A stretch of 64,000 nt of DNA from Nitrososphaeria archaeon (GTDB lineage: Archaea; Thermoproteota; Nitrososphaeria; JACIWG01). The notes beneath the pieces are model-generated. The model was not told the origin of the DNA. It did not search any database and saw only the letters and a program-made list of their open reading frames with translations. Made by a program: the position numbers and the translations under genes. The stretch lies in the NCBI GenBank assembly GCA_050011875.1, contig JBEKIG010000011.1:92019-156018 (forward strand). The letters run 5' to 3'. Shown here piece after piece: positions 17,265 through 41,154 of this stretch; the stretch's first letter is position 1, and each line of letters starts with the position of its first letter.

Positions 17265-18029
17265 ATGATACGAAAAATAGTGCGATATGGTTGGATTCGA
17301 GATATTCCTGACCAACGGGACTATCTATATGCTGCGCCCCCCGAATTCCTTCTGAAGCTTCCATCTAGTGTTGATTTGCGACCACAGTGTCCGCCTGTAT
17401 ATGACCAAGGACAACTTGGAAGCTGTACCGCCAACGCTATTGCGGCTGATTTGGAATTCGACCAGATGAAGGAGAAGCAAGCGCAGATCTTTGTGCCATC
17501 ACGACTGTTCATCTATTATAACGAGCGTGTGATGGAAGGAACTGTAGCTTCAGATTCAGGCGCGCAAATCCGGGACGGAATTAAAAGTGTTGCAAAACAA
17601 GGGGCTTGTCCAGAAAATCTCTGGCCATACGATATCACGAAATTTGCCGTTAAGCCTCCCCAACAATGCTACCAGCAAGCTCTGAAGTATAAGGCGGTCC
17701 AATACCAGAGAATCACGCAGATATCTAACCAGCTAAAAGGATGCCTAGCTTCCGGGTACCCATTTGTCTTCGGCTTTACTGTCTACGAGAGCTTCGAAAG
17801 CCCGCAAGTCGCCCAGACAGGCCATGCTCCCATGCCTTCACCTACGGAAACGGTTGTGGGGGGACATGCTGTGATGGCTGTTGGCTACGATGACTCACAG
17901 AACTGGTTTATTATGAGGAACTCTTGGGGAGAAGGATGGGGTATGAAAGGTTACTTCACTCTGCCGTACGCATACTTGATCGACCAAAATCTAGCTAGCG
18001 ACTTCTGGACAATTCGTACGGTATTGTAA
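17265..18029 (+). CDS. papain-like cysteine peptidase (family C1A)
   Basis: DQGQLGSCTANA (Gln/Cys), GGHAVMAVGY (His), RNSWG..WG.KGY (Asn). Confidence 0.95.
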   Translation: MIRKIVRYGWIRDIPDQRDYLYAAPPEFLLKLPSSVDLRPQCPPVYDQGQLGSCTANAIAADLEFDQMKEKQAQIFVPSRLFIYYNERVMEGTVASDSGAQIRDGIKSVAKQGACPENLWPYDITKFAVKPPQQCYQQALKYKAVQYQRITQISNQLKGCLASGYPFVFGFTVYESFESPQVAQTGHAPMPSPTETVVGGHAVMAVGYDDSQNWFIMRNSWGEGWGMKGYFTLPYAYLIDQNLASDFWTIRTVL

Positions 18030-23291: not shown

Positions 23292-23720
23292 TTATAGTTC
23301 ACTTTTTTCAACAGCTTTTGTAATCTGGTCTCTTAATGCGTCTCGGACATTTCGAAATACCTTTAGAATTTCTTCTTCAGTGCCGACAACTTCTGATGGA
23401 TCCTGAAAATTCCAATAAATAAATCTTTTAGCTCCTGGAAAGTGAGGGCACATCTCTTTTGATTCGTCACATACTGTAACCACTACCTCGATGCCTTTTC
23501 CAATGAACTCAATGAAGGATTTAGCTTTGTTATCTAAGATGTCTATCCCGATTTCAGCCATGACTTTAATGGCGTATGGATTAACTTTTGTCGGAGTAAG
23601 ACCCGCACTATAGGCCACAAATCTATCCCCAAACAGATGGTTTAGTAGACCTTCCGCCATCTGAGACCTAGCAGAATTATGAACACAAAGGAAGAGAACC
23701 TTTCTTTTAACAGGTGGCAT
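23292..23720 (-). CDS. arsC: arsenate reductase, LMW-PTP/thioredoxin type (second paralog)
   Basis: FLCVHNSARSQMAEG, TVCD...CP, FQDP. Confidence 0.92.
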   Translation of the reverse strand: MPPVKRKVLFLCVHNSARSQMAEGLLNHLFGDRFVAYSAGLTPTKVNPYAIKVMAEIGIDILDNKAKSFIEFIGKGIEVVVTVCDESKEMCPHFPGAKRFIYWNFQDPSEVVGTEEEILKVFRNVRDALRDQITKAVEKSEL

Positions 23721-23734
23721 AAAGATTGACTCTT

Positions 23735-24058
23735 CTAAATTATCTGCTCAATAGCATGTCCCGAAAGACTTTCGGTCACTTCAGGTGACACAGTATCAAT
23801 TATATTGAACACCCTCCTGTCTGTAATCGAATAAAATCTCCGAGTCCCATCCTTTCTATCCTTTAGCAGTCCAGAGTCTTTTAGAATCTTCAGGTGGCGT
23901 GAAACTATAGGCTGAGGCATTTTAATATATGGGATTATCTCGCATACACATTTCTCTCCATTTCTCAAATACTCAATAATTTTAAGCCTGATAGGATCAG
24001 AAAGGGCATAAAATATTTTAGCCCTAAATCTGTCCAAACCATCCTTCTGCATTGGCAT
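23735..24058 (-). CDS. arsR: ArsR/SmtB metalloregulator
   Basis: ALSDPIRLKI, EKCVCEI, SRHLKILK. Confidence 0.92.
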   Translation of the reverse strand: MPMQKDGLDRFRAKIFYALSDPIRLKIIEYLRNGEKCVCEIIPYIKMPQPIVSRHLKILKDSGLLKDRKDGTRRFYSITDRRVFNIIDTVSPEVTESLSGHAIEQII

Positions 24059-24073
24059 ACATATAGTGAATTA

Positions 24074-24097
24074 ATCACAATATTTAAATATTGTGAT
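24074..24097. promoter_or_regulatory. perfect 24-bp palindrome, probable ArsR operator over a divergent TATA box
   Basis: atcacaatatttaaatattgtgat is self-complementary, contains TTTAAATA on both strands and lies between arsR and acr3. Confidence 0.85.
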
Positions 24098-24115
24098 AGT
24101 TACGGTCTGAATACG

Positions 24116-24249
24116 GTGCATAATGAGAGAGGCATAACTGTTGCAGTATTTGGTCCTGAACCCCCTTGTGCACCACCTACATGGTTATTGCTTGGGCAGG
24201 TCGCGTATTCTTTGGGTTACTGTACGGTCTTTTAGGTGGTTCTCCATAA
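24116..24249 (+). pseudogene. deletion scar: N-terminus of a small thioredoxin-like gene joined to the 3' end of a membrane-protein gene
   Basis: GTG 24116 gives ..ITVAVFGPEPPCA; a shifted frame then reads TYMVIAWAGRVFFGLLYGLLGGSP*. Confidence 0.5.
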
Positions 24250-24260
24250 GGTGAATTCTT

Positions 24261-25214
24261 TTGGAAAAAGATGAAAAAAAGAAGCTATCTTTTCTCAGTC
24301 GATTTCTCACGCTCTGGATATTCTTGGCCATGATACTAGGTGTTGGCCTAGGATATGTCTTCCCAAAGATCTCTGAAATAATAGGTTCAGTAAGTGTTGG
24401 AACTACTTCAATTCCTATCGCAGTTGGGCTGATCTGGATGATGTTCCCTCCCCTAGCAAAGGTCAGATACGAGGAACTGGGGAAGGTTGTTACAGCCAAA
24501 GGCTCGAAGAAGATGCTTTCAACTTCGCTGATTTTAAATTGGCTAATTGGACCTCTTTTAATGTTCTCATTGGCATGGATATTTTTGGCAAATTATCCAG
24601 CTTTCAGAAATGGAATAATTCTCGTAGGTTTGGCAAGGTGCATCGCCATGGTCATCGTCTGGAACGACTTGGCTGGAGGGGACAGCGAGTGGGCTGCGAT
24701 ACTTGTTGCCTTGAACTCCATCTTCCAGGAGTCTGTAGCGATATACTTGGGGATACCGTTCTTCGGCGGCATGTTGGCAAGATACTACTTTCTGAAGACG
24801 AAGGGTAGGGAATGGTACGACCATAAACTGATGCCGAAGCTGAGCCCGACTTCTTTGTTCGCACTTCTTTTCACGATAGTGGTCATGTTCTCACTTAAGG
24901 GAGAATATATCGTGACACTACCACTTGATGTTGTGAGGATAGCGATACCATTGATAGCCTATTTCATTACAATGTTTCTAATATCATTCATCTTAGGTTA
25001 CTACTTGAAGCTAAACTACAAAAGGACTACTTCACTTGCCTTCACTGCAGCAAGTAATAATTTCGAATTAGCTATTGCTGTAGCAGTCGCAGTTTTTAGT
25101 TTATCCTCACAAGAAGCTTTTGCAACAGTGATAGGGCCCTTGATAGAAGTGCCTGTCATGATAGGCTTGGTGAATGTAGCTATCTGGGCAAAAAGACGTG
25201 TATTTTCTGAATAA
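24261..25214 (+). CDS. acr3: Acr3 arsenite efflux permease with apparent in-frame internal deletion
   Basis: [48 protein letters not shown]; ALNSIFQ runs directly into [10 protein letters not shown]. Confidence 0.9.
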
Positions 25215-25800: not shown

Positions 25801-26027
25801 CGTTCAGTCCTCTCATAAATTAACTAAGAAAGACTTTCTATCTTTAACGGGACAAAAACGGTAGACCAGTTAATAGAATCGTAAAACGTATTTAGATCTG
25901 CTTGAACACTCCACGTAAAAATTCGAGAAACGGGAATGCTTTCTTCACATCTGAATTTGCCCGCATCTATCTATCATTCAACAAACTTTACTGAATTGGT
26001 TAATGGCATAGCTGAACAAAATAATAG

Positions 26028-26354
26028 TTTGAGCCAGAAAATTCTAAGGTTATTAAATCTGGCTCAAGCAAAAAAAATCGGAAACGCTAACTCCAAACAT
26101 TCCACTTGCTGGCTCAGACAGATCCCTCGGTACAATATTTAACATCAACACGCTCCCATGCAGAACGCATTTAAATTGAGCCAACGGGAAATAGTTAACG
26201 TTAGCGTTTTGTTTTAAAACGTGTTGAGCCAAACCAAATTTAGATAATTATTTTTTGGCTCACACTAAAATATCATTAAATATCTTTGATATGGATCAGT
26301 AAACAGTCGCAGCGCTAATGAAACCCATAAAGCTGTTGCTGGCCAAGTTGAGCC
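26028..26354. repeat. cluster of seven TGAGCC(A) motifs, including two inverted pairs
   Basis: Forward at 26030, 26177, 26225, 26349; reverse at 26060-66, 26110-16, 26256-62; AT-rich non-coding context. Confidence 0.8.
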
Positions 26355-26820
26355 TGAAACCTATTAAGTCCGTGCGGACACACCTAATTTACATACTTAA
26401 AAACAAAAATTAACGTACTGATTATATTCATTGACATGGTTAACTTGTCGTTGAAGATCTTATTTGGTTACCTGATTAATCTAATAATAGGAAAGTGTTT
26501 CTTGAATACCAATTGCAATAAGATACCACTTATGATGAAGTAATGGCAGACTGTAGGAGATGCCATAAAGAGGAATATAGAAAAGTTAAGTAACTTTTAA
26601 AAAATTAAGTTACATTACGTCACACAAAAGAATGTTTTGTAATATAGTAAAATCAATGACAAACAATATCTTTTGACACCATGCCTATTCTTATCAGAAC
26701 TGTCAAGAAGCGCATATACTTTAGTTCTCTTCTGCCTTTTCCTCTCGGACAGCACCTCTGTTATTTAAAATCTATTGTATATCACTATTTTTTAGATATA
26801 GAAATATATTTGTTAGTACC

Positions 26821-26842
26821 AAAAGGACACTTATGTCCTTTT
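26821..26842. repeat. 9-bp perfect inverted repeat aaaaggaca-ctta-tgtcctttt
   Basis: Seen directly; half-site aggacactta recurs at 26951-26960. Confidence 0.7.
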
Positions 26843-27038
26843 TTGCAGGATATAACTTCAAATTATCCTGATCATTTGTCAAATAAAAATAATGAGTGGG
26901 GGAACTTCATAGCGATAATGTTTAGTTCGAGGTTTAATGATACCTAAGGCAGGACACTTAACATTCGAGCAGGATTGGATTTTGGGCACAAAGTTAACAT
27001 CAAGTTTTTGGGGGTTTGTGCTCATGCCCAGAAAACCA

Positions 27039-29513
27039 TCAAAACTCAAGGTCAACTTGTCTGAGTTCTTCGATTATCCTTTTCACGCCTTTGTTGTTTA
27101 CTGCAGCTTCCTTTAACCGTTTCTCGTTTAGATCTTCCTTTTCTTCAACGTCCACGAATGATGACATAGTTTCCTGTTCTTCTATGATCCTCCCCCTTTC
27201 ACTCGCCTGCGCCACTTCAACCTTTTTCCCTATCAGCGAGAAGATGCTTTCTATTTCGTCAGGTAACACAGCGGTAGGGACTTCTAGTGCGCGGTTATAA
27301 TTCTTCACAGGGAACATACTGTTAAGTTTGTTCAGCAGGTGCTCGGCAAGCTTCTTTGCGCCCCCTTCCATTCGCAGCATGCTATCTATTTCGACACGTT
27401 TCTTCGCTAAGTATTCAAGACTAATTCCATGTGAGGAGAAATAAGCCTCCCACTTGGGATTCATGCGATTATATATGCTTTTTATAGTTCTACTGACATC
27501 TACCTGCGCCTTTTGTGAAAGTGCCTCCTCAACATCGCTAAGTGTGAAACCGAATTCTTTGATCATCTTTGGGTCAACTCCAATCCGCTGGACAGCTTGT
27601 GTAATCTCCTTAGCCTTCATCGAAATCAGGATACCTGGCGCATCGTAATCGGTCAGTATGGCGATGCCTGCACCGCTTTCTGAAGCTCCTGAAGCCACCC
27701 TGTTGGAGTACTCCTGCAGGAATCCCCGTGAGTTGATGATGCCGATGCCGTATAGTTCCAAAAAGGGTGAGACAGCCTCGGCTACGCCCTCCTTTTCGAT
27801 GATCAAGATGACGACACCCTTCTTTATCAGGCTATCGATCTGCTTGAAGGAGATGGGGTAATGGACCCCAAGAAAGAAGAACTGTGACCTTTCAGAGGCG
27901 ATGATCCCAAGCTCATCACGCGAAACACCCAGCCTTATACACTCGCTAGAAATCGCACTTGTGATATACTTTCTATCAGCTTCGACGCCGTTCTCCCGGA
28001 ATATTGGCTGAAGGTCATACCAGACTGAACTCTGCGTTTTGCGATCAGTCTCCAGAAGAGTAGGATCCCGTTCGACCGCCTGCTTTCTTTCGCACAAGTA
28101 GTTTCGCAGGATACCGATTTGCGGGACGGATGAATTCGTCCCCTTAAGGCGCGCCATCTTACCCTTAAACCCCTTGAAATATTTCGCCATGAAATCTTCC
28201 AGACCATCAACATACTCCTCGGCATCGAATCTGTTCTTTCCTATCCCCTGCCAAGCTGGGAAAGGTGTTATTACGTGAACCACCAACACCCCTTGTTCAA
28301 CATGGTACTCATCGAGTGGGCCGTAAATCCCGTGCCAACCCGCGTCGTCTTTGTTTGGGCGTACACGACTAAAATAGCAATCCGCAAACGGATTATCTAG
28401 CGTAGGGGTACCGTTGACTCCAGTAATTATTTCCGTGTCACCATCATGTTTAATGCCGAAAGCGAATTCAACCACATAAGGGATTGTCCTCCCTTCGGTT
28501 GATATAGAATCCGTCTCAATCGCATATCTGAACGTGTTCGGGTAGATGTCGTAGAGGTCTATCAACCCCTTTTTTAATGCCTTCCTGCCGATCGCCCCAA
28601 GGGAGGACGGCGAAGTCGGTGGGCTTACAGAATGAAAAAGGTTATAGATTTCTTTGATTATGTTTTCATCGTTGACAGTAAGTTGGCCATCTATCGGAAA
28701 CCCGAACAGCTCCCCAAACTCCCCCATTGACATCCCCTCACTTGCGGCAGTGACCACTAAATCACGGATGGCATTATAATCGTACCACGACGCGTTTGTA
28801 TGGCCGCTGTACAACCGAGTGCAACCCCCCCTTGGCGCAATTTCTTCCTCCCCGTTGAACCAGAATTCCACATTTGGATTAAAAAGGGCGATTTTCCTAA
28901 CAATTTCCAGAAGCTTGTCTTCTTCGTCCTCCGAAAGCGGCGGCAAGTTTGAGGTAACTGTCGTTCGGCGCTTAACGCCCTCCCCAACCTTTACAACCTC
29001 CGGTGTAATTGAATTTTGTGAAACGCCTCTCCAGTAAATTTCAAACTTGCCCTTTCCGGTTTCAATTGTAAGCGACTTAAAATCCGTTGGCTCCAACTTC
29101 TCGAATGCAAGGGCATAAGGGATGCCTACGACATACTTCAGCCCACCGCCAAGCGCGCCGCGCTTTGTTAAAAGCACCCACTTTTTTGTACTTGACATCA
29201 GCTTCGGGTCTACGGCACGCTTTATTTCTTCAATGTTGAAACTGTGGCTATGAGGCGAAGTCGGGTTAGAGACTGAAATAAACGTGCGACCACCTTCAAC
29301 CTTAATTTCAATCAAAACTAAACCTTTTGCTTCGTCTAAAGCGTTATCCAGAAGTTCCTTCGCCACAATCGCTGGCAGATCATCACGGGTTACACCCAGA
29401 TGGTTAAGGATTGAATTTAGCCTCACAAATTCCAATGTGCGCGGCGCTGATAACATAGGCCCAGACTTGTCATCGCTTCCTGACAAGCGTTTGACTTTGA
29501 TTTTTTTCGACAA
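27039..29513 (-). CDS. single-chain type IIB topoisomerase-like protein (TopoVI-B GHKL + TopoVI-A Toprim fusion; Topo VIII-like)
   Basis: KELLDNALD (N-box), KRGALGGGLK (G2), GVGKRRTTV-position G3-like strand; SSVWYDL (candidate catalytic Tyr), IIEKEG, SRGF, LTDYDAPG (DxD), VEIDS. Confidence 0.82.
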   Translation of the reverse strand: MSKKIKVKRLSGSDDKSGPMLSAPRTLEFVRLNSILNHLGVTRDDLPAIVAKELLDNALDEAKGLVLIEIKVEGGRTFISVSNPTSPHSHSFNIEEIKRAVDPKLMSSTKKWVLLTKRGALGGGLKYVVGIPYALAFEKLEPTDFKSLTIETGKGKFEIYWRGVSQNSITPEVVKVGEGVKRRTTVTSNLPPLSEDEEDKLLEIVRKIALFNPNVEFWFNGEEEIAPRGGCTRLYSGHTNASWYDYNAIRDLVVTAASEGMSMGEFGELFGFPIDGQLTVNDENIIKEIYNLFHSVSPPTSPSSLGAIGRKALKKGLIDLYDIYPNTFRYAIETDSISTEGRTIPYVVEFAFGIKHDGDTEIITGVNGTPTLDNPFADCYFSRVRPNKDDAGWHGIYGPLDEYHVEQGVLVVHVITPFPAWQGIGKNRFDAEEYVDGLEDFMAKYFKGFKGKMARLKGTNSSVPQIGILRNYLCERKQAVERDPTLLETDRKTQSSVWYDLQPIFRENGVEADRKYITSAISSECIRLGVSRDELGIIASERSQFFFLGVHYPISFKQIDSLIKKGVVILIIEKEGVAEAVSPFLELYGIGIINSRGFLQEYSNRVASGASESGAGIAILTDYDAPGILISMKAKEITQAVQRIGVDPKMIKEFGFTLSDVEEALSQKAQVDVSRTIKSIYNRMNPKWEAYFSSHGISLEYLAKKRVEIDSMLRMEGGAKKLAEHLLNKLNSMFPVKNYNRALEVPTAVLPDEIESIFSLIGKKVEVAQASERGRIIEEQETMSSFVDVEEKEDLNEKRLKEAAVNNKGVKRIIEELRQVDLEF

Positions 29514-29580
29514 ATTTATATCATCATATTATGTATATATTGTCCGGGAAATGAAATTTACAGGGTTAGGTGGACAGAAA

Positions 29581-30501
29581 ATGTCCTCAAAAAATTCCAT
29601 CATGGGAAAGATAGTAGACTCTTTAAAGCAAGGTTGTCAGAGTCGGGAAGATGTGATGAAGATAATAAGTGGAAATATACCAAGTTTGTCCGCCGAAACT
29701 CTTAGGAAAAGATGTGGACGCTATATAACAACTCTAACGGCATTAGGCCTAATCGAGGAAAGAGGGGGCAAATACTGCTGGTTTACGTATGAAAATATTT
29801 TTGAATACCATGAGGATTACGAAGCAAAGGTAAAACATTCCCGTGACCTGATACCGGCTCTAGAAAGTATAGCTGGAATTGTCAGAGGCAAATATTCACT
29901 GGACGTGAATATAGAGCGTGCTTTTCATATGAATCAAGACATGCTTAAAACTTATGCCAAAGAACATTTACGACATTATCCAGAAATTTGGAAAATATTT
30001 GAGAATTACGAAGCAAAAAGAAAAGAGGCAGAAAAGAGGATCGAAGCGTTTAACGATGACCTTAAACGTAAATTAAACAGCACTTTAAATCAAAAGTCAA
30101 AGTGGGCCAAGGGTGGAATAAGGTTAACCGACAACAAAGACATACCAAGCATACCCGATCTGATATACGGTTACATCATGAGCGAACAGGCCGCAGACTC
30201 TGTCAACATTAAATGTGAGACAGGGGAAATATCGTTCAGTGGGTACCTAGTTGCGAGGGGAAATAACCCTAAACATCTCAAAGAATTTCTTAAAAAAGAA
30301 ATCTCAGACAGGTCAAATATTCAGAAAGTTGACGCAATCAAAAGATCTTCCAAGGAGTCCCTTAAAATCCAGGAAACAATAAGACCTAAGGTAGAAGAAC
30401 TTGCTATGAAAATAGCGTGGGGAGAACCCTTACTGGGTGAGTGTACAGGATGCCCGAAAGGTTATTTTGTGAAAAAGCAGCAAGCTTCTGTAAAACCATA
30501 G
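29581..30501 (+). CDS. hypothetical protein with N-terminal wHTH, coiled coil and C-terminal CxxC
   Basis: Start placed at ATG 29581 (MSSKNS); RYITTLTALGLIEERGGKY wing; LGECTGCP. Confidence 0.65.
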   Translation: MSSKNSIMGKIVDSLKQGCQSREDVMKIISGNIPSLSAETLRKRCGRYITTLTALGLIEERGGKYCWFTYENIFEYHEDYEAKVKHSRDLIPALESIAGIVRGKYSLDVNIERAFHMNQDMLKTYAKEHLRHYPEIWKIFENYEAKRKEAEKRIEAFNDDLKRKLNSTLNQKSKWAKGGIRLTDNKDIPSIPDLIYGYIMSEQAADSVNIKCETGEISFSGYLVARGNNPKHLKEFLKKEISDRSNIQKVDAIKRSSKESLKIQETIRPKVEELAMKIAWGEPLLGECTGCPKGYFVKKQQASVKP

Positions 30502-30895
30502 TTTTCATTGAGGTTTCTAGCGCGAAATATAAATCCTTTGTCAAGTTGCCATCAATGATAAAATAGCTCTAGAAGCTTTGGATAAAGTTATTCCAAACAT
30601 AAAAAAATGATAGATTAGACAGAGATTTTAGTTTGGGATAAATTAAATATCGAGATCTAACATAAACCTATCTTGACAAACAATATCCCTTCAAGGATAA
30701 GCGGATGCAACTTGTCAATTTATTAAAAAAGTCTCTGCAAACTAATTCTTTATCTATTGGAAAGCATAATTCAGCCAGTGTCAACAGTTGGGCAAAATGA
30801 TTTCTTTAAGGCCCCTTTTTCTTATGCCGTAGGCTTCAAAGATACCTGACCATTATTCTACCCGTTCCGGTAATCTGTGATTTACACGGGTTTTT

Positions 30896-34775: not shown

Positions 34776-35300
34776 CTAAACCACTTTCTTCTCCATATGT
34801 TTGAGAAAACCTACACCGTTAAGCGACTTGCGAATGCTCTCAGGGTTGCCTTTTGGCAACGGGGGCAGCCCTAGAGACTCCCGCTTTTTCAACCGCAGTT
34901 CTGGGATCCTGTAAGCGTAACCTGACTCTAGCACGCTTGCACACTGTTCCTTGAACACTTGGGGTACAACCCCCTCCTCTACAGCCAAGTTTCTCAGTAC
35001 GCGTATAACGCTTGCGACTTCGACGTCCTGTGGGCAGCGGTCTGTGCACGTAAAGCATGAGGCGCACAACCATAGTGTATCGCTCTTTAACACCCTGTAC
35101 TTCAATCCAAGTTGCGCCATACGTATTATCTGCCCAGGCCTGTAGATATCACTAAATCTTGCGACCGGACAGTCTGAAGTGCATGTTCCACACTGGAAAC
35201 AGCGCATCAGCTTTTCTCCTCCGTGCATCCTGGAGATTTCATACTTGAACTTGGGATCGATCTCAGATGCCTTAACAACCTTCTTTTCTGTTTCGTTCAT
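34776..35300 (-). CDS. hdrC: heterodisulfide reductase subunit C
   Basis: CFQCGTCTSDCP, WLCASCFTCTDRCP. Confidence 0.95.
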   Translation of the reverse strand: MNETEKKVVKASEIDPKFKYEISRMHGGEKLMRCFQCGTCTSDCPVARFSDIYRPGQIIRMAQLGLKYRVLKSDTLWLCASCFTCTDRCPQDVEVASVIRVLRNLAVEEGVVPQVFKEQCASVLESGYAYRIPELRLKKRESLGLPPLPKGNPESIRKSLNGVGFLKHMEKKVV

Positions 35301-35707
35301 TATTCATTAACCTCTTTAACCATAATTGGGTTTGGCCCCATCTCTTTGATCTTTTCCACCATGTCTTTGACTACAACTGCAAACTTATCCCCTTCACTGG
35401 CCGAAATCCATTCTAGCCTCAGCCTTTCAGGCTCAATTCCTAATTCTTTGAGAACCCTCTTTAGGAGCATGATTCTTCTCAACGCCTTAAAGTTTCCACT
35501 GATGTAGTGGCAGTCAGATGGTAAATGGCAACCGGCAACAAGCACTCCGTCCGCACCATCCCTGAAGGCTTCGAGAATGAATGACGGCTCTATCCTCCCA
35601 CTGCACATAACACGCACGATCCTAATGTTAGGAGGATACTGAATCCTACTAACACCAGCAAGGTCAGCGCCAGCATAACTACACCAGTTACACAGGAAAC
35701 CAATAAT
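35300..35707 (-). CDS. mvhD: hydrogenase Fe-S subunit MvhD; reading frame intact from IIGFLCNWC but no start codon
   Basis: Frame reads [38 protein letters not shown]; an in-frame TAG lies just upstream and the frame overlaps the hdrA read-through. Confidence 0.85.
35589..35707. repeat. 119-bp exact direct repeat B, copy 1 (mvhD 5' part)
   Basis: Identical to 39353-39471. Confidence 0.95.
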
Positions 35708-38700
35708 ACCTCCAATAATGCCGCTCTAACCTGCGCCATAATCTCTTCGGTTGTAAAGTGCCCCATGGTGATGGCTTTAGTTGGACACGCTGCACCACAT
35801 GCACCACAGCCCTTGCACAGGGCTTCAACCACATGCGCGACAGCCTTACCTTCTTTATCTTCCATTTCGATTGCCTTATACGGGCAAAGGCTTTCACAGA
35901 TCCTGCATCCACCGCAGAGATCTTCATCCACGTTCGCCACGATTCCTTCCATCTCAAGCGACTCTTTCGAAAGTATGGTTGTCGCCCTTGCCGCAGCAGC
36001 GCAGGCTTGAGAGATACTTTCATCAACGTACTTGGGAGAATGCGCCATTCCGCAGAGGAATACACCTTCGGTTGCAAAGTCCACCGGCCTTAGTTTCATG
36101 TGGGCCTCTAAGAAGAAGCCATCCTTCGTCAACGGCACCTTTAGCATTTCTGCCAGCTTTCTATTGCCTGAATCAGCTATGGTAGCCGCGCTCAATACTA
36201 CGATGTCTGGTTCGACTTCGATTTCTTCCCCTAGTGTTGGTTCCAAAAACATAACACCTAGTTTTCCACCGTCATTTTCAACTTTAGGTTTTCTTGCGTC
36301 ACTGTAGTTTACAAATAGAACTCCCTTCATAGCTGCTTCTCGGTAATAGTCTTCCTTGAAACCGTAGGCTCTCATATCTTTGTAAAGGATGTAAACTTCA
36401 GTTTCTGGGCTTACTTCTTTGATTTTTATAGCATTCTTTACTGCTTGGCCACAGCAGATCCTTGAGCAGTTGGGGTTCTCTTCATTTCTGGCTCCGACGC
36501 ATTGAATCATAACAGCGCACTTTGCATTGAAAGCGCCTCCGGTGAGCCTATCCTCAAGTTCGTGCTGTGTTAGGACCCTAGGGTCCGTCCCGTAGAGGTA
36601 TTCCGTCGGCTTGTATTCGACGGCTCCGGTAGCAACTATTACAACACCGTGCAAGATTTCCACTTCTTTCCCGTTTTCCTGCTTCACCTTTGATCTATAA
36701 TTGCCTACGAACCCATATACGTCAACGACTTCTGCACCGGTGTAGACGTGTATCTTCCTATTTTCGGTGACGCCCCTGATCAGTTCTCCGAGTTTTTCTT
36801 TAGGATCGACCTTTTCTCCCAGCATGTAATGGATCTTCCTAAGGTGACCGCCCAGTTCCTTCTCCTTCTCTACAAGGTTCACTTCAAATCCCTGCTCTGC
36901 GAGTTTCAATGCAGCAGTCATGCCTGAGACTCCGCCCCCTATAACTAGGCCGACCGGTGTAACGCTTACACGTGGTTTCTGTAACGGCTTCAGCAGTACT
37001 GCTTTTGCAGCGATCGACCGCACAAGATCCTTGGCCTTCTCGGTTGCCTCTCTAGGCTGGTGCATGTGCACCCAGCTACACTGGTCACGTATGTTGGTCA
37101 TTTCAAAAAGGTAGGGGTTCAGTCCAGCTTCCTGCACCGTTTCCCTGAACAATGGCTCGTGAGTCCTAGGCGTACACGAAGCCACGATAACACGGTTCAA
37201 ATTGTTGGCTTTGATCTTCTCTGCAATAAGTTTCTGTGTGTCCTGGGAGCATGTGTAAAGGTTAGCTTCCGCGTAGACCACGTTAGGAAGCCCTTTAGCG
37301 TATTCAACTACTTCAGGAACGTTGACCACTCCACCGATATTTATTCCGCAGTGGCACACGAACACGCCTACACGCGGTTCTTCCCCACTTACATCCCTCT
37401 CCGGTGGGTACTCTTTTTTGGCTACTAGAGTTCCCCTCTCACCTGCGATTTCGTCCATCGCCATGGCGGCTGCGCCGCTTGCCTGTGCGACGCTTTCTGG
37501 GATATCCTTCGGACCGCTGAATGCACCACAGACGAATATGCCTTTCTTAGACGTTTCCATCGGCGAGAAGATTTCTGTTTCACAGAAGTTGTACCTGTTA
37601 AGCTTTATTCCCAAGACCCCAGCAAGCCCCGCAAAATTCTTCGGAGGCTGCATCCCTGTCACCAGCACGATTAAGTCAAAATCTTCTGTTCTCGGATTAT
37701 TATCTTCAACATAGTTTATGAAGATGTTGTTTGTATTCGGGTCCTCTGTTACGCTAGCAACCCTAGACCTAACAAATCTTACCCCATATTCCTCTTCTGC
37801 ACGATTCCTGTAGGCATCAAATTCCTTACCGTAGGAGCGCATGTCCATATAAAAAATGGATGCGTCAAGCTTTGTCGGCGTGTGCTCTTTAGCTATCACC
37901 GCCTCCTTTATGCCGTACATACAGCACGCTGCGGAGCAGTAGTTGTTACCTAGTTGGTAGTCCCGCGAACCAACGCACTGAATGAAAGCGATCTTCTTAG
38001 GAATTTCGCCGTCCGAAGGCCTGAGCACAAGCCCACCATATGGTCCTGATGCGCTCAGGATTCGCTCGAATTCTATGCTTGTCACGACATTCGGGTACCG
38101 GCCAAACCCATATTCACTCTTCAGTTTAGCGTCGAAGGTTTCAAATCCTGGTGCAAGAATTACCGAACCAACCTCTAACGTGGTCTCGCTGTCTTCCTGT
38201 TCATAATCGATAGCCTGAGCTTTACAGATTTCAGAGCAGGTTCCGCAGCCGATGCACTTTTCGCGGTCAATAGTGTACTTTAAGGGAACAGCCTGAGGGT
38301 ATTCGATGTAAATCGCGCTTCTCGTTCCAAGGCCTTCGTTGAAAGCGTCAACCACTTCAACTGGACACTTCTGTGCGCAGAGTCCACAGCCGTTGCATTT
38401 CTCTTCGATCACGCGCCTGCTCTTCCTTCGAATTCCCACTTTGAAGTTTCCTGACTCTCCGCTAAGGCCTGTTATTTCTGCATTTGTCAGAATTATGATG
38501 TTCGAGTGCCTTCCCGTTGCAACAAGCTTTGGTGAGAGGATGCACATCGAACAGTCGTTCGTTGGGAAGGTCTTGTCAAGCTGGGCCATCACTCCGCCTA
38601 TGCTTGGGCCCTGGTCAACCAGGTAAACTCTAAAACTCGAATCCGCTAGATCGAGGCTTGCCTGGATTCCAGCCACTCCTCCTCCTACTACAAGAACTGC

Positions 38701-38721
38701 ACCAACCTTCTTATCTGTCAT
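35590..38721 (-). CDS. hdrA: large tandem HdrA (two FAD domains, inserted and C-terminal ferredoxins)
   Basis: [58 protein letters not shown]; last ~35 aa are out-of-frame mvhD sequence. Confidence 0.93.
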
Positions 38722-41154
38722 CTACTCAACCTCCAACGCTTTATAGAGTGGTGTCTGGTCTTCAATTGAATCCACGGCTATCATGTTCTTCCTGCGCATG
38801 TTAACGACCTCCCTAAGAACCTCAGCAGGTTTCATATGGACGGCTGCTGCCAGATCCTTAACCGATTTAGGTTTATTTCGTGTGAGAATGTGAATCTTTT
38901 GACGAACATATTCGGATAAAACCATATCGTTGAGTAAGGAATCGAATTCCTCCTGCGGAATCTTTTCTTCGTAAACGTTATTCTTCTCAGTTAGCTCCCT
39001 TTCTCTTCCAACGATAACCCTTAACCTGAAATTAGCAGCCGCATTCTTCGCTGCCTTAAGGTTCAGCAGAATATCCTGGCTCTTCGCCGACACGGGTGAA
39101 GGACCCAATTTCCTGATACGTTCTGTGAATTCGGTCACCAGCATGGCGAACCTCTGTCCTTCCGACGCTGAAACCCATTCTAGTTCCAGGCGTTCAGGCT
39201 CCAGCCCAGTCAGCGCCAAGAGCTTTTTAGCCAAGATGATCTTCCTCTCTTCGTACAGGTTTCCCTCGACATAGTGGCAGTCTCCGGGGTGGCATCCCAG
39301 AACCAGTACGCCGTCAGCTCCCCTGATCAGAACCTCGAGGGGAATTGTCGGATCTATCCTCCCACTGCACATAACACGCACGATCCTAATGTTAGGAGGA
39401 TACTGAATCCTACTAACACCAGCAAGGTCAGCGCCAGCATAACTACACCAGTTACACAGGAAACCAATAATGGCTGTGGCCTCAGCCAACACCTGCGCGT
39501 CACTGAAGTGCCGCATGGTTATTGCTTTTTCGGGGCAGCTGGCGGCGCAAACCCCGCAACCCTTGCAGAGCACATCATTAACCCAAGCAACCCCCTTCTC
39601 ATCCTTCTGTATGGCGCTGTAGGGGCACATTTTGATACACGTTCCGCAGCCCGTGCAAGCCTCCCCCTTCACTGAGGCCGTTATGGCTTCGGTTGTTACA
39701 CGCTTAAGAGCCATCGGGATACCTGCCCTCGAAGCTGCCGCGTACGCTTGGGCGACGCTTTCTGGAATAGTCTTAGGGCTGTGTGCTGTTCCGCAGACAA
39801 ATATTCCGTCGGTGGCAAAGTCCACCGGCCTAAGCTTAACGTGGGCTTCAAAGAAGAATCCGTCTGCTCCAAGTGGAACCTTAAGAATTTTGGAGAGCTC
39901 CCTGCTTCCCTCGGACTGGATCAGCGGAGTCGATAAAACGATGAGGTCGGGTTGAAGTTCAAGGGTTTCGTTGACGGAGATATCGTGAACCCTTACGATG
40001 ATCCTTCCGTCTTCTTCCGAGAAGACTTCCGGAGGTTCTTCCTTTTCGAATCTTATAAATTGGACGAAGCTCTCTCTCGCCTGCTTATACTGTCCCTCAA
40101 ATTCACGGCCGTAGGCCTGCATGTCCCTGTAGAGTACGGTGACTTCGGCCTCTGGATACGTTTCTTTGATCTTTAAAGCATTCTTAAGTGCGACTGCGCA
40201 ACAGATCCTTGAACAATAGTTTATTCCACCATCTTTTTCTTCCCTCGCGCCCACACACTGGATCATTATAACGTTCTTCGGCTCAGGCAGCGCCCCTTCT
40301 TTCAGAAGACGCTCCAACTCCAATTGTGTGATAACTCCCTTGTTTTCTCCGTACAGATACATTCCCTTAGGCTTGAGGACATCCGCTCCCGTCGCGACTA
40401 CAATGGTTCCTGCGTCAAGATTTTCTTCTTTACCATTGTTATCTATTGTTACCTTAAAGTTGCCTATGAAGCCCTCATTACGTTTTACTGTTGATGATGT
40501 GTAGGTCTTTATGTTGGGATTTGAGCGGACGGCCTGTAGATAAACTTCTAAAATTTCACCCGCATCTTTTTCGCTCGGATATAGGCTGTAAAGCTCCCGA
40601 AGTTTTCCACCCAGCTCAGGTTCCTTTTCTATCAGGTGAACCTTGAAGCACTGGTTTGCTAGGCTTAACGACGCTGTCATTCCCGCAACTCCACCGCCTA
40701 TCACAAGCGCCAAAGGCTGAACGTCAATTTCAGGCTCGCTTTGAGGCTCAAGCAAGGCTGCTTTGGCCACGCACATCTTGACAATCTCTTTGGCTTTTTC
40801 TGTGGCTTTCTGAGACTCCTTCGCGTGCACCCAGCTGCATTGCTCCCTTATGTTCGCCATTTGAAATAGGTACTTGTTCAGCCCAGCTTCTTCGCACGCG
40901 CTCCTAAAGAGCGGTTCGTGAGTTCTCGGCGTGCATGAAGCAACAACTACACGGTTAAGTTCGTATTTCTTGATAGCTTCTTTAAGTTTCCCCAGCCCTT
41001 CAGACGAGCACGTGTAAAGGTTTCCCTCCGCGTGTACGACATCTGTTAAGGTCTTTGCGTATTCGACGACGTCAGGAACGTTCACTACTGCTCCGATGTT
41101 GACTCCACAGTAGCATACGAAAACTCCTATTCGGCACTTCGTCTTCTCGCTCAC
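38722..41154 (-). CDS. hdrA: HdrA C-terminal half fused to MvhD and a C-terminal wHTH
   Basis: [29 protein letters not shown], 2x[4Fe-4S], then [21 protein letters not shown], then SVKDLAAAVHMKPAEVLREV. Confidence 0.9.
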   Translation of the reverse strand: MSEKTKCRIGVFVCYCGVNIGAVVNVPDVVEYAKTLTDVVHAEGNLYTCSSEGLGKLKEAIKKYELNRVVVASCTPRTHEPLFRSACEEAGLNKYLFQMANIREQCSWVHAKESQKATEKAKEIVKMCVAKAALLEPQSEPEIDVQPLALVIGGGVAGMTASLSLANQCFKVHLIEKEPELGGKLRELYSLYPSEKDAGEILEVYLQAVRSNPNIKTYTSSTVKRNEGFIGNFKVTIDNNGKEENLDAGTIVVATGADVLKPKGMYLYGENKGVITQLELERLLKEGALPEPKNVIMIQCVGAREEKDGGINYCSRICCAVALKNALKIKETYPEAEVTVLYRDMQAYGREFEGQYKQARESFVQFIRFEKEEPPEVFSEEDGRIIVRVHDISVNETLELQPDLIVLSTPLIQSEGSRELSKILKVPLGADGFFFEAHVKLRPVDFATDGIFVCGTAHSPKTIPESVAQAYAAASRAGIPMALKRVTTEAITASVKGEACTGCGTCIKMCPYSAIQKDEKGVAWVNDVLCKGCGVCAASCPEKAITMRHFSDAQVLAEATAIIGFLCNWCSYAGADLAGVSRIQYPPNIRIVRVMCSGRIDPTIPLEVLIRGADGVLVLGCHPGDCHYVEGNLYEERKIILAKKLLALTGLEPERLELEWVSASEGQRFAMLVTEFTERIRKLGPSPVSAKSQDILLNLKAAKNAAANFRLRVIVGRERELTEKNNVYEEKIPQEEFDSLLNDMVLSEYVRQKIHILTRNKPKSVKDLAAAVHMKPAEVLREVVNMRRKNMIAVDSIEDQTPLYKALEVE
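39353..39471. repeat. 119-bp exact direct repeat B, copy 2
   Basis: Identical to 35589-35707. Confidence 0.95.

Follow-up and report, generated by a model that had tools for sequence, protein, structure and literature searches.

Type IIB DNA topoisomerases, among them Topo VI, meiotic Spo11 with its partners, Topo VIII and Mini-A, form a small group that is little understood and whose origin is unclear. Topo VIII was described in Gadelle et al. 2014 (PMC4117785) and in Takahashi et al. 2019/2020 (PMC7671362), and the latter lists 82 Topo VIII and 23 Mini-A sequences, with only four archaeal Topo VIII among them, all from Euryarchaeota. According to the same paper, the Bergerat boxes of the ATPase domain (N-box, G1 of the form DxGxG and G2 of the form GxxGxG or GxxGxA) are conserved in 93% of Topo VIII, an arginine at the third position behind the catalytic tyrosine is 'conserved in every sequence', and the tyrosine motif varies as R/HxxY/F/M-Y, including RxxMY and HxxY/FY, alongside the two types of G2 box. 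No archaeal Topo VIII or Mini-A had been characterized as of a 2021 review, in whose Table 1 neither of its two thaumarchaeal representatives is credited with an additional type IIB enzyme (PMC8185306), and the passages found in a survey of thaumarchaeal mobile elements mention only type IA topoisomerases (PMC6563490). Here we analyze a gene at 27039..29513 on the minus strand of a 64,000-nucleotide stretch, hereafter the window, of contig JBEKIG010000011.1 from a Nitrososphaeria archaeon. Its product, P0001, is probably a homodimeric single-chain type IIB topoisomerase that travels on mobile DNA as cargo and comes from a large clade nearest to Topo VIII but distinct from it in the cleavage half.

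The gene is a single open frame of 824 codons from a TTG start to a stop codon at 27039-27041, and the plus strand across the same interval is full of stops. The real start is probably the ATG at 29454..29456 (M20), which would give a protein of 805 aa, because the two closest homologs of P0001, P0003 (86% identical) and P0004 (82%), both start at most four residues from Met20, because DNA homology to the copy in the one same-genus relative of this genome (G001; the genome carrying the window is G000) stops at 29459-29465, and because an AT-rich, TATA-like stretch lies just upstream at ~29522-29548. Between the P0001 gene and its G001 ortholog, the ratio of nonsynonymous to synonymous substitution rates (dN/dS) is 0.17 over the whole gene and 0.12 in the GHKL part, the lowest in the protein, at a synonymous divergence (dS) of 0.43. 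Another contig of the genome (2.64 Mb in 119 contigs) carries a tandem pair of canonical genes, for Top6B (548 aa) and for Top6A (360 aa). Top6A is present in all 31 genomes searched (G000 and 30 relatives) and is 99% identical between G000 and G001; the P0001 gene occurs in 2 of 41 genomes, namely these two.

The N-terminal half of P0001 (residues 12-459) is predicted to fold as Topo VI-B, with GHKL, H2TH and transducer domains. A word-indexed search in which 8000 candidates were scored identified 18 relatives at E ≤ 1e-3, and a profile built from 11 homologs matched Topo VI-B structures (1z59, 1mx0 and 2zbk) at about 1e-14 (best E 9.8e-15), in an alignment that runs unbroken from the N-box through the H2TH and transducer domains to the switch-lysine motif, through residue ~467. 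With a 65-row profile the match to Topo VI-B structures reached an E-value of 9.5e-29. Pfam searches with the 11 homologs recovered HATPase_c and Topo-VIb_trans in five each, DUF2399 in four and Toprim in two. Structure comparison gave the same picture: for the whole-chain AlphaFold model (predicted local distance difference test, pLDDT, 75.2, with residues 107-122 below 50), the top Foldseek matches were all Topo VI-B, led by 2hkj at 3.5e-17, and VIA-align superposed model residues 17-452 on 1mx0_B with a Z of 25.9 (root-mean-square deviation, rmsd, 4.3 over 372 aligned residues), compared with 20.9 for MutL and ~18-21 for the ATPase regions of GyrB and Topo II.

An exhaustive profile search returned 3841 cluster representatives at E ≤ 1e-3, 861 of them at E ≤ 1e-30, and conservation of individual residues was read from a motif alignment of its 68 top matches of 750-1150 aa together with three plasmid proteins, in which 56 rows belong to the family and 15 to canonical Topo VIII. 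The GHKL/Bergerat ATPase-like domain, delimited by the Topo VI-B profile and structural alignments, spans residues ~24-225 (28839..29444; all features of the gene lie on the minus strand). It contains an N-box at residues 50-61 (VAKELLDNALDE; 29331..29366) whose KELLDNALD motif holds the general-base Glu53 and the Mg-binding Asn57; in the family rows these columns read E in 45/56 and N in 50/56, the rest being mostly gaps. The G2 box at the end of the ATP lid (residues 116-126, TKRGALGGGLK; 29136..29168), identified by alignment and containing RGALGGG at 118-124, is of the GxxGxG type in P0001 and of the GxxGxA type in 40 of the 56 family rows. The H2TH and transducer domains follow at residues ~226-460 (28134..28838), as placed by the profile alignment to Topo VI-B, and end in a long linker helix; they include the predicted switch lysine K426 (GKNRFD; 28236..28238), which aligns with the GKESI motif of Sulfolobus shibatae Topo VI-B and is a lysine in every row, both family (56/56) and canonical (15/15).

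The C-terminal half is predicted to begin with the DNA-cleaving core of Topo VI-A and Spo11, a 5Y-CAP domain joined to a Toprim domain (residues 462-733). Folded alone with the 65-row alignment, residues 462-824 gave a model with a pLDDT of 93.8, for which Foldseek ranked Top6A first (1d3y_B, 3e-6), followed by Methanosarcina mazei Topo VI-A and yeast Spo11. A Foldseek-independent VIA search of 48,161 chains likewise matched 1d3y_B (Z 16.2, rmsd 4.5, 249 aligned), placing model residues 1-272 on chain residues 71-364, with further matches to Top6A chains 2zbk_A (Z 14.7) and 2q2e_A (Z 14.3) and to Spo11 chain 8uru_A (Z 11.7); no unrelated fold among these chains scored above a Z of about 8. The MksG nuclease 8b7f_B also aligned well (Z 15.0, rmsd 2.6), over 161 residues of the Toprim part only. 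Profile-profile comparison of this half by hhalign agreed, giving, as the best of three families, canonical Topo VIII (99.5% probability, E 5e-23, 256 columns), then Mini-A (97.2%, E 4e-11, 116 columns) and Top6A (92.7%, E 4e-7, 134 columns), with the Top6A alignment pairing IEKEG with VEKGG and LTDYDAPG with LTDADPYG.

All residues expected of the cleavage chemistry are in place. The 5Y-CAP (winged-helix) domain, aligned to Top6A 1d3y from its residue 71, covers residues ~463-540 (27894..28127) and contains the predicted catalytic tyrosine Y499 (TQSSVWYDLQP; 28017..28019), which falls in the column of the RxLFYxxRP motif of published Topo VIII and is invariant across the 56 family and 15 canonical rows. 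The Toprim domain, delimited by sequence alignment, profile-profile comparison and structural match, spans residues ~541-733 (27315..27893) and carries E573 in IEKEG (27795-27797), an invariant NSRGF motif at residues 594-598 and D622/D624 in LTDYDAPG (27642-27650), all located by alignment; E573, D622, D624 and G627 are each found in all 56 family rows and are invariant in the canonical Topo VIII set too. Following the motif definitions of PMC7671362, the equivalent of the T2BI box is RVEIDSM at residues 706-712 (27378..27398). Judged by these residues, the cleavage side of P0001 is fully intact. An earlier first-pass annotation of this DNA had described an 824-aa frame with an N-box, an RGALG G2 motif, a winged-helix tyrosine and Toprim EK and DYD motifs, and had called the product a single-polypeptide, Topo VIII-like type IIB enzyme; each of those motifs is present, on the minus strand (the annotation had named no strand), and the call is borne out by the likeness of the two halves to Topo VI-B and to Top6A/Spo11 and by plasmid matches that are Topo VIII in three cases out of three (see below).

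Beyond the Toprim domain, P0001 continues into a helical extension (residues 734-824; 27042..27314) with three long helices in the predicted secondary structure, and for these last ~90 residues no structural match was found past residue ~273 of the C-terminal model. This extension is also the predicted main homodimer interface. Co-folding two copies of the C-terminal half gave an interface score (ipSAE) of 0.77 (runs of 0.77, 0.74 and 0.77) against 0.00 for the best control, with runs agreeing in at least 76% of contacts and a partner pLDDT of at least 82, which passes the test of the co-folding tool. In its calibration, 20 of 30 proteins with structures solved as pairs and 1 of 23 solved as single chains attained this mark, figures that carry over only roughly because the alignment was our own. 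The confident contacts come mostly from fragment residues 266-363 (protein residues 727-824), with a contribution from fragment residues 83-129, so the main predicted interface lies in a segment that is absent from Top6A. These models support, without showing, a homodimer.

We then asked how P0001 stands relative to Topo VIII. Searching 72,556 plasmids by tblastn with P0001 gave matches to three records only (83-86% query coverage, 21-24% identity), from Pseudomonas sp. Leaf58 pBASL58, P. amygdali pMPPla107 and a Halalkalicoccus jeotgali plasmid, and the relevant passages of PMC7671362 name each of them as a carrier of Topo VIII. Among the 68 top profile matches, the canonical signatures RxL[FYW]YxxRP, HDxDxxG and RVELNA are found in 12; the other 56, including P0001, carry TQxx[VIL][FYW]Y, LTDxDxxG, the invariant NSRGF and R[VI]EIDS[VI]L instead. 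Four residues from the tyrosine on its N-terminal side (position -4), the family rows have S in 28, Q in 16, N in 5, D in 5 and R in 2 (n = 56), whereas all 15 canonical rows have R, and the fifth T2BI residue is D in 49/56 family rows and N in 13/15 canonical rows. The arginine at +3 is kept in 44/56 family and 15/15 canonical rows but lost in the trio P0001/P0003/P0004. A tree of the A-half (107 rows, 360 columns; IQ-TREE, LG+C20 with posterior mean site frequencies, quick search), with support given only by the Shimodaira-Hasegawa-like approximate likelihood ratio test (SH-aLRT), recovers four groups: Top6A (5 rows, 100), phage Mini-A together with a 726-aa fusion from the same genome described below (4 rows, 99), published and motif-canonical Topo VIII (15 rows, 99) and the P0001 family (83 rows, 98). 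P0001 thus falls outside the 15-row clade that holds the three published Topo VIII sequences, and the tree gives no firm branching order among the Mini-A group, Topo VIII and the P0001 family. It left out search hits with fewer than 250 C-half residues as well as six short proteins that match the N-terminal half or middle region. Stand-alone members of the family that consist of an A-half only (~270-430 aa; L031:3398-4624 and short proteins such as P0085, P0092 and P0109) nest among the fused forms; the gene at L031 abuts a tyrosine integrase with no B-half detected in 3.4 kb upstream, and a portion of the short database entries could be fragments or split forms.

These comparisons bear on a simple alternative, namely that P0001 is a divergent member of Topo VIII as published and that its motif differences are ordinary drift. 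The shared architecture, the plasmid matches, the hhalign probability of 99.5% and the resemblance of RVEIDSM to RVELNAM would all fit, as would the nesting of canonical Topo VIII rows among family rows in a tree of the B-half and the variation around the tyrosine and in the G2 box that passages of PMC7671362 already report for Topo VIII. The A-half tree, however, separates the two groups with high support on both sides, the arginine at -4 and the T2BI residue differ between them in the proportions given above, the G1 aspartate discussed below is found in 15/15 canonical but only 11/56 family rows, and the archaeal Topo VIII listed in that paper come from Euryarchaeota only. We take this alternative seriously and consider it unlikely. 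Because several published Topo VIII motifs fail in P0001 and its A-half sits in a separate, populous clade, we favor a new subfamily of Topo VIII-like enzymes over plain membership of Topo VIII. The clade is large, apparently undescribed and sampled in metagenomes and in metagenome-assembled genomes (MAGs) of Nitrososphaeria and Thermoproteota, with members on the mobile DNA of soil archaea; our literature search found no description of it, although the supplementary sequence tables of PMC7671362, which lay outside that search, could contain members.

In GHKL ATPases, the aspartate of the G1 box contacts N6 of adenine. P0001 reads ISVSNPTSPHSHSF at the position where relatives carry xVxDNGxG, in agreement with the first-pass annotation, which had noted that the usual DNGxG is replaced: in this degenerate G1 box (residues 78-95, FISVSNPTSPHSHSFNIE; 29229..29282), Asn83 stands in place of the adenine-contacting aspartate and the glycines are lost. 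Asn83 is no private accident, as the family rows have N in 31, D in 11, G in 4, another residue in 3 and a gap in 7 (n = 56), compared with D in all 15 canonical Topo VIII rows. Because Glu53, Asn57, the G2 loop and the switch lysine are kept and the domain is under purifying selection, we expect a nucleotide pocket that is changed but functional, with an altered, weakened or non-ATP nucleotide dependence, rather than a dead domain.

A pocket of this kind could also belong to a repurposed DNA breaker, acting in defence, addiction or a Spo11-like process, in which the ATP site is disabled and the B-half is a mere regulatory or dimerizing scaffold. Beyond the loss of the G1 aspartate and glycines, this would be in keeping with reports that Topo VIII of A. 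degensii only linearized plasmid DNA (PMC4117785, PMC7671362) and that, in eukaryotes, the ATP sites of the Topo VI-B-like proteins that partner Spo11 are degenerate (PMC7671362). The gene neighborhoods offer some further hints, since the G001 copy has genes for a type IIG restriction-modification protein and for a HerA-like ATPase as neighbors, while one relative adjoins a SIR2_2 gene and another a gene for an SMC-like AAA_23 protein; the Toprim match to MksG points the same way. By contrast, P0001 retains E53, N57, the G2 loop and K426, its GHKL part has the lowest dN/dS in the protein, which is unexpected for a mere scaffold, and no conserved partner gene was found across the related loci. 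A JetD-like defence nuclease, which the first-pass annotation had offered as its second option, finds no backing either: PADLOC gave no match for P0001, P0005 or P0010 and only an E of 0.007 to JetD for P0006, and JetD and MksG align to the Toprim domain only, whereas Top6A and Spo11 cover the 5Y-CAP domain too. We therefore judge a repurposed breaker to be quite improbable and retain the reading of P0001 as a topoisomerase with an altered pocket.

To place the gene in its genomic context, we scanned one genome per species (185,579 species) and confirmed 23 loci, all from MAGs titled Nitrososphaeria or Thermoproteota. The neighbors of these relatives include tyrosine integrases (cluster 4 in four loci, plus L027), D5/DUF5906-type primase-helicases (three loci), a fusion of DUF72 with a Y-family polymerase (four loci), one DDE transposase and several small unknown open reading frames (ORFs). 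Such neighborhoods match the mobile-element habitat reported for Topo VIII. Eight of the loci lie in a single Nitrososphaerales MAG (L012, L016, L018, L020, L024, L025, L027 and L028), where they adjoin integrase, primase-helicase, Y-family polymerase and transposase genes; in several of them the coding sequence is broken up into two or three ORFs, for which decay and assembly error are both possible. Taken as a set, the eight resemble a mobile element present in multiple copies, or several elements of one family.

Outside the window, contig C4 of the genome carrying it has yet another type IIB gene, the third (L046:193-2373, plus strand), which encodes a single chain of 726 aa. Its C-terminal half matches Mini-A (phrog_6247, E 1.4e-61) and contains LRQVFY, IEKEA, GDFDPPG and the Mini-A signature VWEVDAL, and its N-terminal half is GHKL/Topo VI-B-like (KELTDNALD, SDDGKP, RGVLGNA) and groups with the family members P0049 and P0050 in the B-half tree (SH-aLRT 100). 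This protein may be the fused 'Mini-B' form that Takahashi et al. sought but did not find, according to passages of PMC7671362, and may be a sign of shuffling of B and A modules.

At the locus itself, comparison with G001 delimits a variable segment of ~4.65 kb (26004..30654): G001 matches the window site up to 26003 (from 25393) and again from 30655, and carries an unrelated 1.8-kb filler between these points. Only three things lie in the segment: the P0001 gene, non-coding DNA that is AT-rich, and a divergently transcribed ORF of 307 aa. The two copies of the gene lie at different loci, since only window positions 26946-29465 align to the G001 locus that carries it, and their identity is 86% at the protein level and 87% at the DNA level, compared with 93-97% for flanking host DNA. 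The distribution of the gene among these genomes is thus patchy and non-syntenic. That the gene is element-borne, as the first-pass annotation had proposed, is supported for the family by the integrases, primase-helicases and transposases beside its relatives, and in part for the present copy, which sits in a variable, non-syntenic segment lacking mobility genes.

One might instead see this copy as a decaying, non-functional remnant of a degraded integrated element. The missing mobility genes, the AT-rich non-coding DNA beside the segment at 25.2-27.0 kb, the lost consensus residues (N83, S495 and Q502), the long branch of the subclade and the split copies in the Nitrososphaerales MAG could all be read in that way. 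Decay is hard to reconcile, however, with an intact frame of 824 codons under the constraint given above (dN/dS 0.17 at dS 0.43), with odd residues that are common to all three subclade members (82-86% identical), with intact cleavage residues and with a confidently predicted C-terminal fold (pLDDT 93.8) that is compatible with a functional protein. We regard a decaying remnant as highly improbable and continue to treat the gene as functional and as probable mobile-DNA cargo.

The 307-aa ORF (29578..30501, plus strand), to which no family was assigned, is transcribed divergently from the topoisomerase gene and is the only neighbor shared with the ortholog locus in G001, where a distant homolog occupies the same position (E 3e-7 pairwise; 1e-28 to 3e-30 by jackhmmer). 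Because no homolog turned up next to any of the other 22 related loci, we rejected this ORF as a conserved operon partner. Window positions 30445-30538, which span its last codons and downstream DNA, match L010:18339-18432 (94 bp, 94.7% identical), which lies 6.3 kb away from the topoisomerase gene of G001; the match points either to the remains of another copy of the 307-aa ORF or to elements that recombined with each other. At L045 ~17900-18013 of G001 (equivalent to window ~30,600-30,673), directly upstream of a conserved 14-mer, about seven imperfect short repeats of the TCTGAC(A) type follow one another and may be the iteron or arm-site array of another inserted element. That 14-mer (TGACAAACAATATC) forms a perfect direct repeat in the window, with a left copy at 26657..26670 and a right copy at 30674..30687 (both on the plus strand) that bracket 4017 bp; the right copy lies 20 bp inside the point where G001 homology resumes, and the G001 site has a single copy.

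Next to the variable segment, an arsenic-resistance cluster (ArsC, ArsR and ACR3; 23292-25214) matches G001 contigs C19 and C2 at 93-96% identity, and the 19-23 kb region of the window matches yet other G001 contigs. Because its parts match different places in G001, the stretch from 19 to 31 kb is a mosaic relative to that genome. Farther along the window, an HdrA-MvhD fusion gene (35300-38721, minus strand) contains one frameshift near 35,700, such that its 1043-aa ORF ends in an out-of-frame tail and the MvhD-like sequence continues, in another frame, into a 105-aa ORF at 35300-35617; a paralog at 38722-41154 is intact, and the frameshift could be genuine or could stem from faulty sequencing.

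Several observations weigh against our preferred reading of P0001 as an active topoisomerase of a separate, mobile-DNA-borne subfamily. A Pfam search with P0001 alone returned no family at E ≤ 1, and NCBIfam and phmmer searches of the PDB with the single sequence returned only MutL at E ~0.01, so its homology is visible only through profiles, relatives and structure. The first-pass annotation had held that a lack of any Topo VI-A or Topo VI-B profile match would count against it, and this is indeed what the single sequence gives in Pfam; profiles built from relatives do find such matches. Even the 65-row profile found no Top6A chain among the 60 matches listed from the PDB at E ≤ 10, and for this reason the assignment of the A-half rests on structure prediction, profile-profile comparison and relatives. 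Part of the dimer result may reflect likeness to known structures, as solved Top6A dimers exist. With regard to the clade, the P0001/P0003/P0004 trio (support 100) hangs on a long stem of 1.03 in the A-half tree, and the B-half tree (70 rows), although it sets all fused enzymes apart from Top6B (100), interleaves canonical Topo VIII with family members, so that only the cleavage half bears out a separate subfamily. The two trees come from quick searches, carry SH-aLRT support only and include 3 of the 82 published Topo VIII, plus 12 metagenomic rows assigned by motif. Three features reported as constant in Topo VIII are missing in P0001, namely the G1 aspartate (N83), the arginine at -4 (S495) and the arginine at +3 (Q502), and a loss or change of activity is possible. 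As to mobility, the segment at 26004..30654 contains no integrase or replication gene, a scan of IMG/VR gave 27 pattern matches with none confirmed, a tblastn search of phages gave no match to P0001, and the 14-nt repeat, which arose by chance in 122 of 1000 first-order Markov simulations, is a weak hint only and was rejected as an att site. A tRNA scan found no gene in the window, and hence no tRNA attachment site, and base composition gives no island signal, the gene having 47-49% GC like its neighbors.

With these points in mind, P0001 would act as follows. In its predicted architecture, a Topo VI-B-like clamp (residues ~24-460) is joined through the transducer helix to a Top6A/Spo11-like core, followed by the helical dimerization tail. 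Two copies of Tyr499, each with a Toprim-bound Mg2+, would make a transient double-strand break through 5'-phosphotyrosyl links, and the B-halves would gate a second duplex through that break, resulting in relaxation or decatenation. As mobile-DNA cargo accessory to the host Topo VI, the enzyme would likely serve the topology or resolution of element DNA. A bolder proposal combines three elements: that the Asn-bearing clamp uses another nucleotide (e.g. a 6-oxo purine such as GTP) or closes without ATP, that the C-terminal bundle forms a third dimer interface below the DNA gate, and that the 726-aa fusion of the same genome shows B/A shuffling and is the 'Mini-B' form. Taken jointly, we find these improbable; if true, they would include an interface below the DNA gate that type IIB enzymes are supposed to lack.

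A populous thaumarchaeal branch on mobile DNA that combines an intact cleavage core with an altered pocket would be a natural experiment on the uncoupling of DNA-gate chemistry from ATP. The branch also adds data for rooting the type IIB family, and its small single-chain enzymes suit structural work. In genome annotation, the branch accounts for a group of Nitrososphaeria 'hypothetical proteins' of ~800 aa, and its members could be used as markers of integrated elements.

Comparison with the described systems sets P0001 apart from each of them. JetD of Wadjet and MksG (7til, 8b7f), Toprim nucleases whose partner is an SMC-like complex (JetABC or MksBEF), share the Toprim fold, and DUF2399 matches occur in four of the 11 homologs, but these proteins have no GHKL half and overlap with P0001 in the Toprim domain only, whereas P0001 has a 5Y-CAP domain with an invariant tyrosine; no SMC-like gene adjoins the P0001 gene in the window. 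With Mini-A, P0001 shares the short 5Y-CAP and Toprim core, and the family T2BI box (E-[IL]-D-[SA]-x-L) resembles ELDAL; short family members match phrog_6247 weakly (E 2e-5 to 8e-3), and the C-terminal half of P0001 has no match in PHROG or by tblastn in phages. Mini-A proteins, which are viral, differ in being stand-alone (~300 aa) without a B-half, in their RxxY/FY motif and in the tryptophan of xWELDAL, and the three phage Mini-A sequences in the A-half tree fall in a clade apart from P0001. Topo VI (2zbk, 2q2e, 1d3y and 1mx0) shares both folds (Z ~24-26 for the B-half and ~14-16 for the A-half) and the same kind of catalytic residues, but consists of two subunits from separate genes, of which A binds B through a full-length 5Y-CAP N-terminus, and is chromosomal and universal in the relatives (31/31 genomes), whereas P0001 is fused, is without roughly the 70 N-terminal residues of Top6A, ends in a helical tail and carries an asparagine at G1.

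Topo VIII is the closest system. NCBIfam has no curated model for it, and both Topo VIII and members of the P0001 family give only sub-threshold Top6A and Top6B matches there. P0001 differs from Topo VIII in keeping the N-box and G2 (GALGGG) while failing the G1 box, in having serine (S495) rather than arginine at -4 from the tyrosine and Q502 at +3. Its family differs in the tyrosine motif (TQxxΦΩY, where Topo VIII has RxxY/FY), in the Toprim motif (LTDxDxxG versus HDxDxxG), in the invariant NSRGF, in the T2BI box (R[VI]EIDS[VI]L versus RVELNAM, with R, V, E and M of the latter matched in P0001 and L, N and A replaced by I, D and S) and in its hosts, which are Nitrososphaeria and Thermoproteota, whereas the four published archaeal Topo VIII are all euryarchaeal. 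Nonetheless, P0001 fuses B and A halves in one chain of ~800 aa as Topo VIII does, and it shares the N-box, G2, the switch lysine, an aromatic residue (W498) before the tyrosine, the Toprim glutamate and DxDxxG and the R-V-E start of the T2BI box. Like Topo VIII, it appears to be an extra type IIB enzyme carried on mobile DNA, and Topo VIII is its best match by sequence and by profile. Overall, P0001 most likely works like a Topo VIII.

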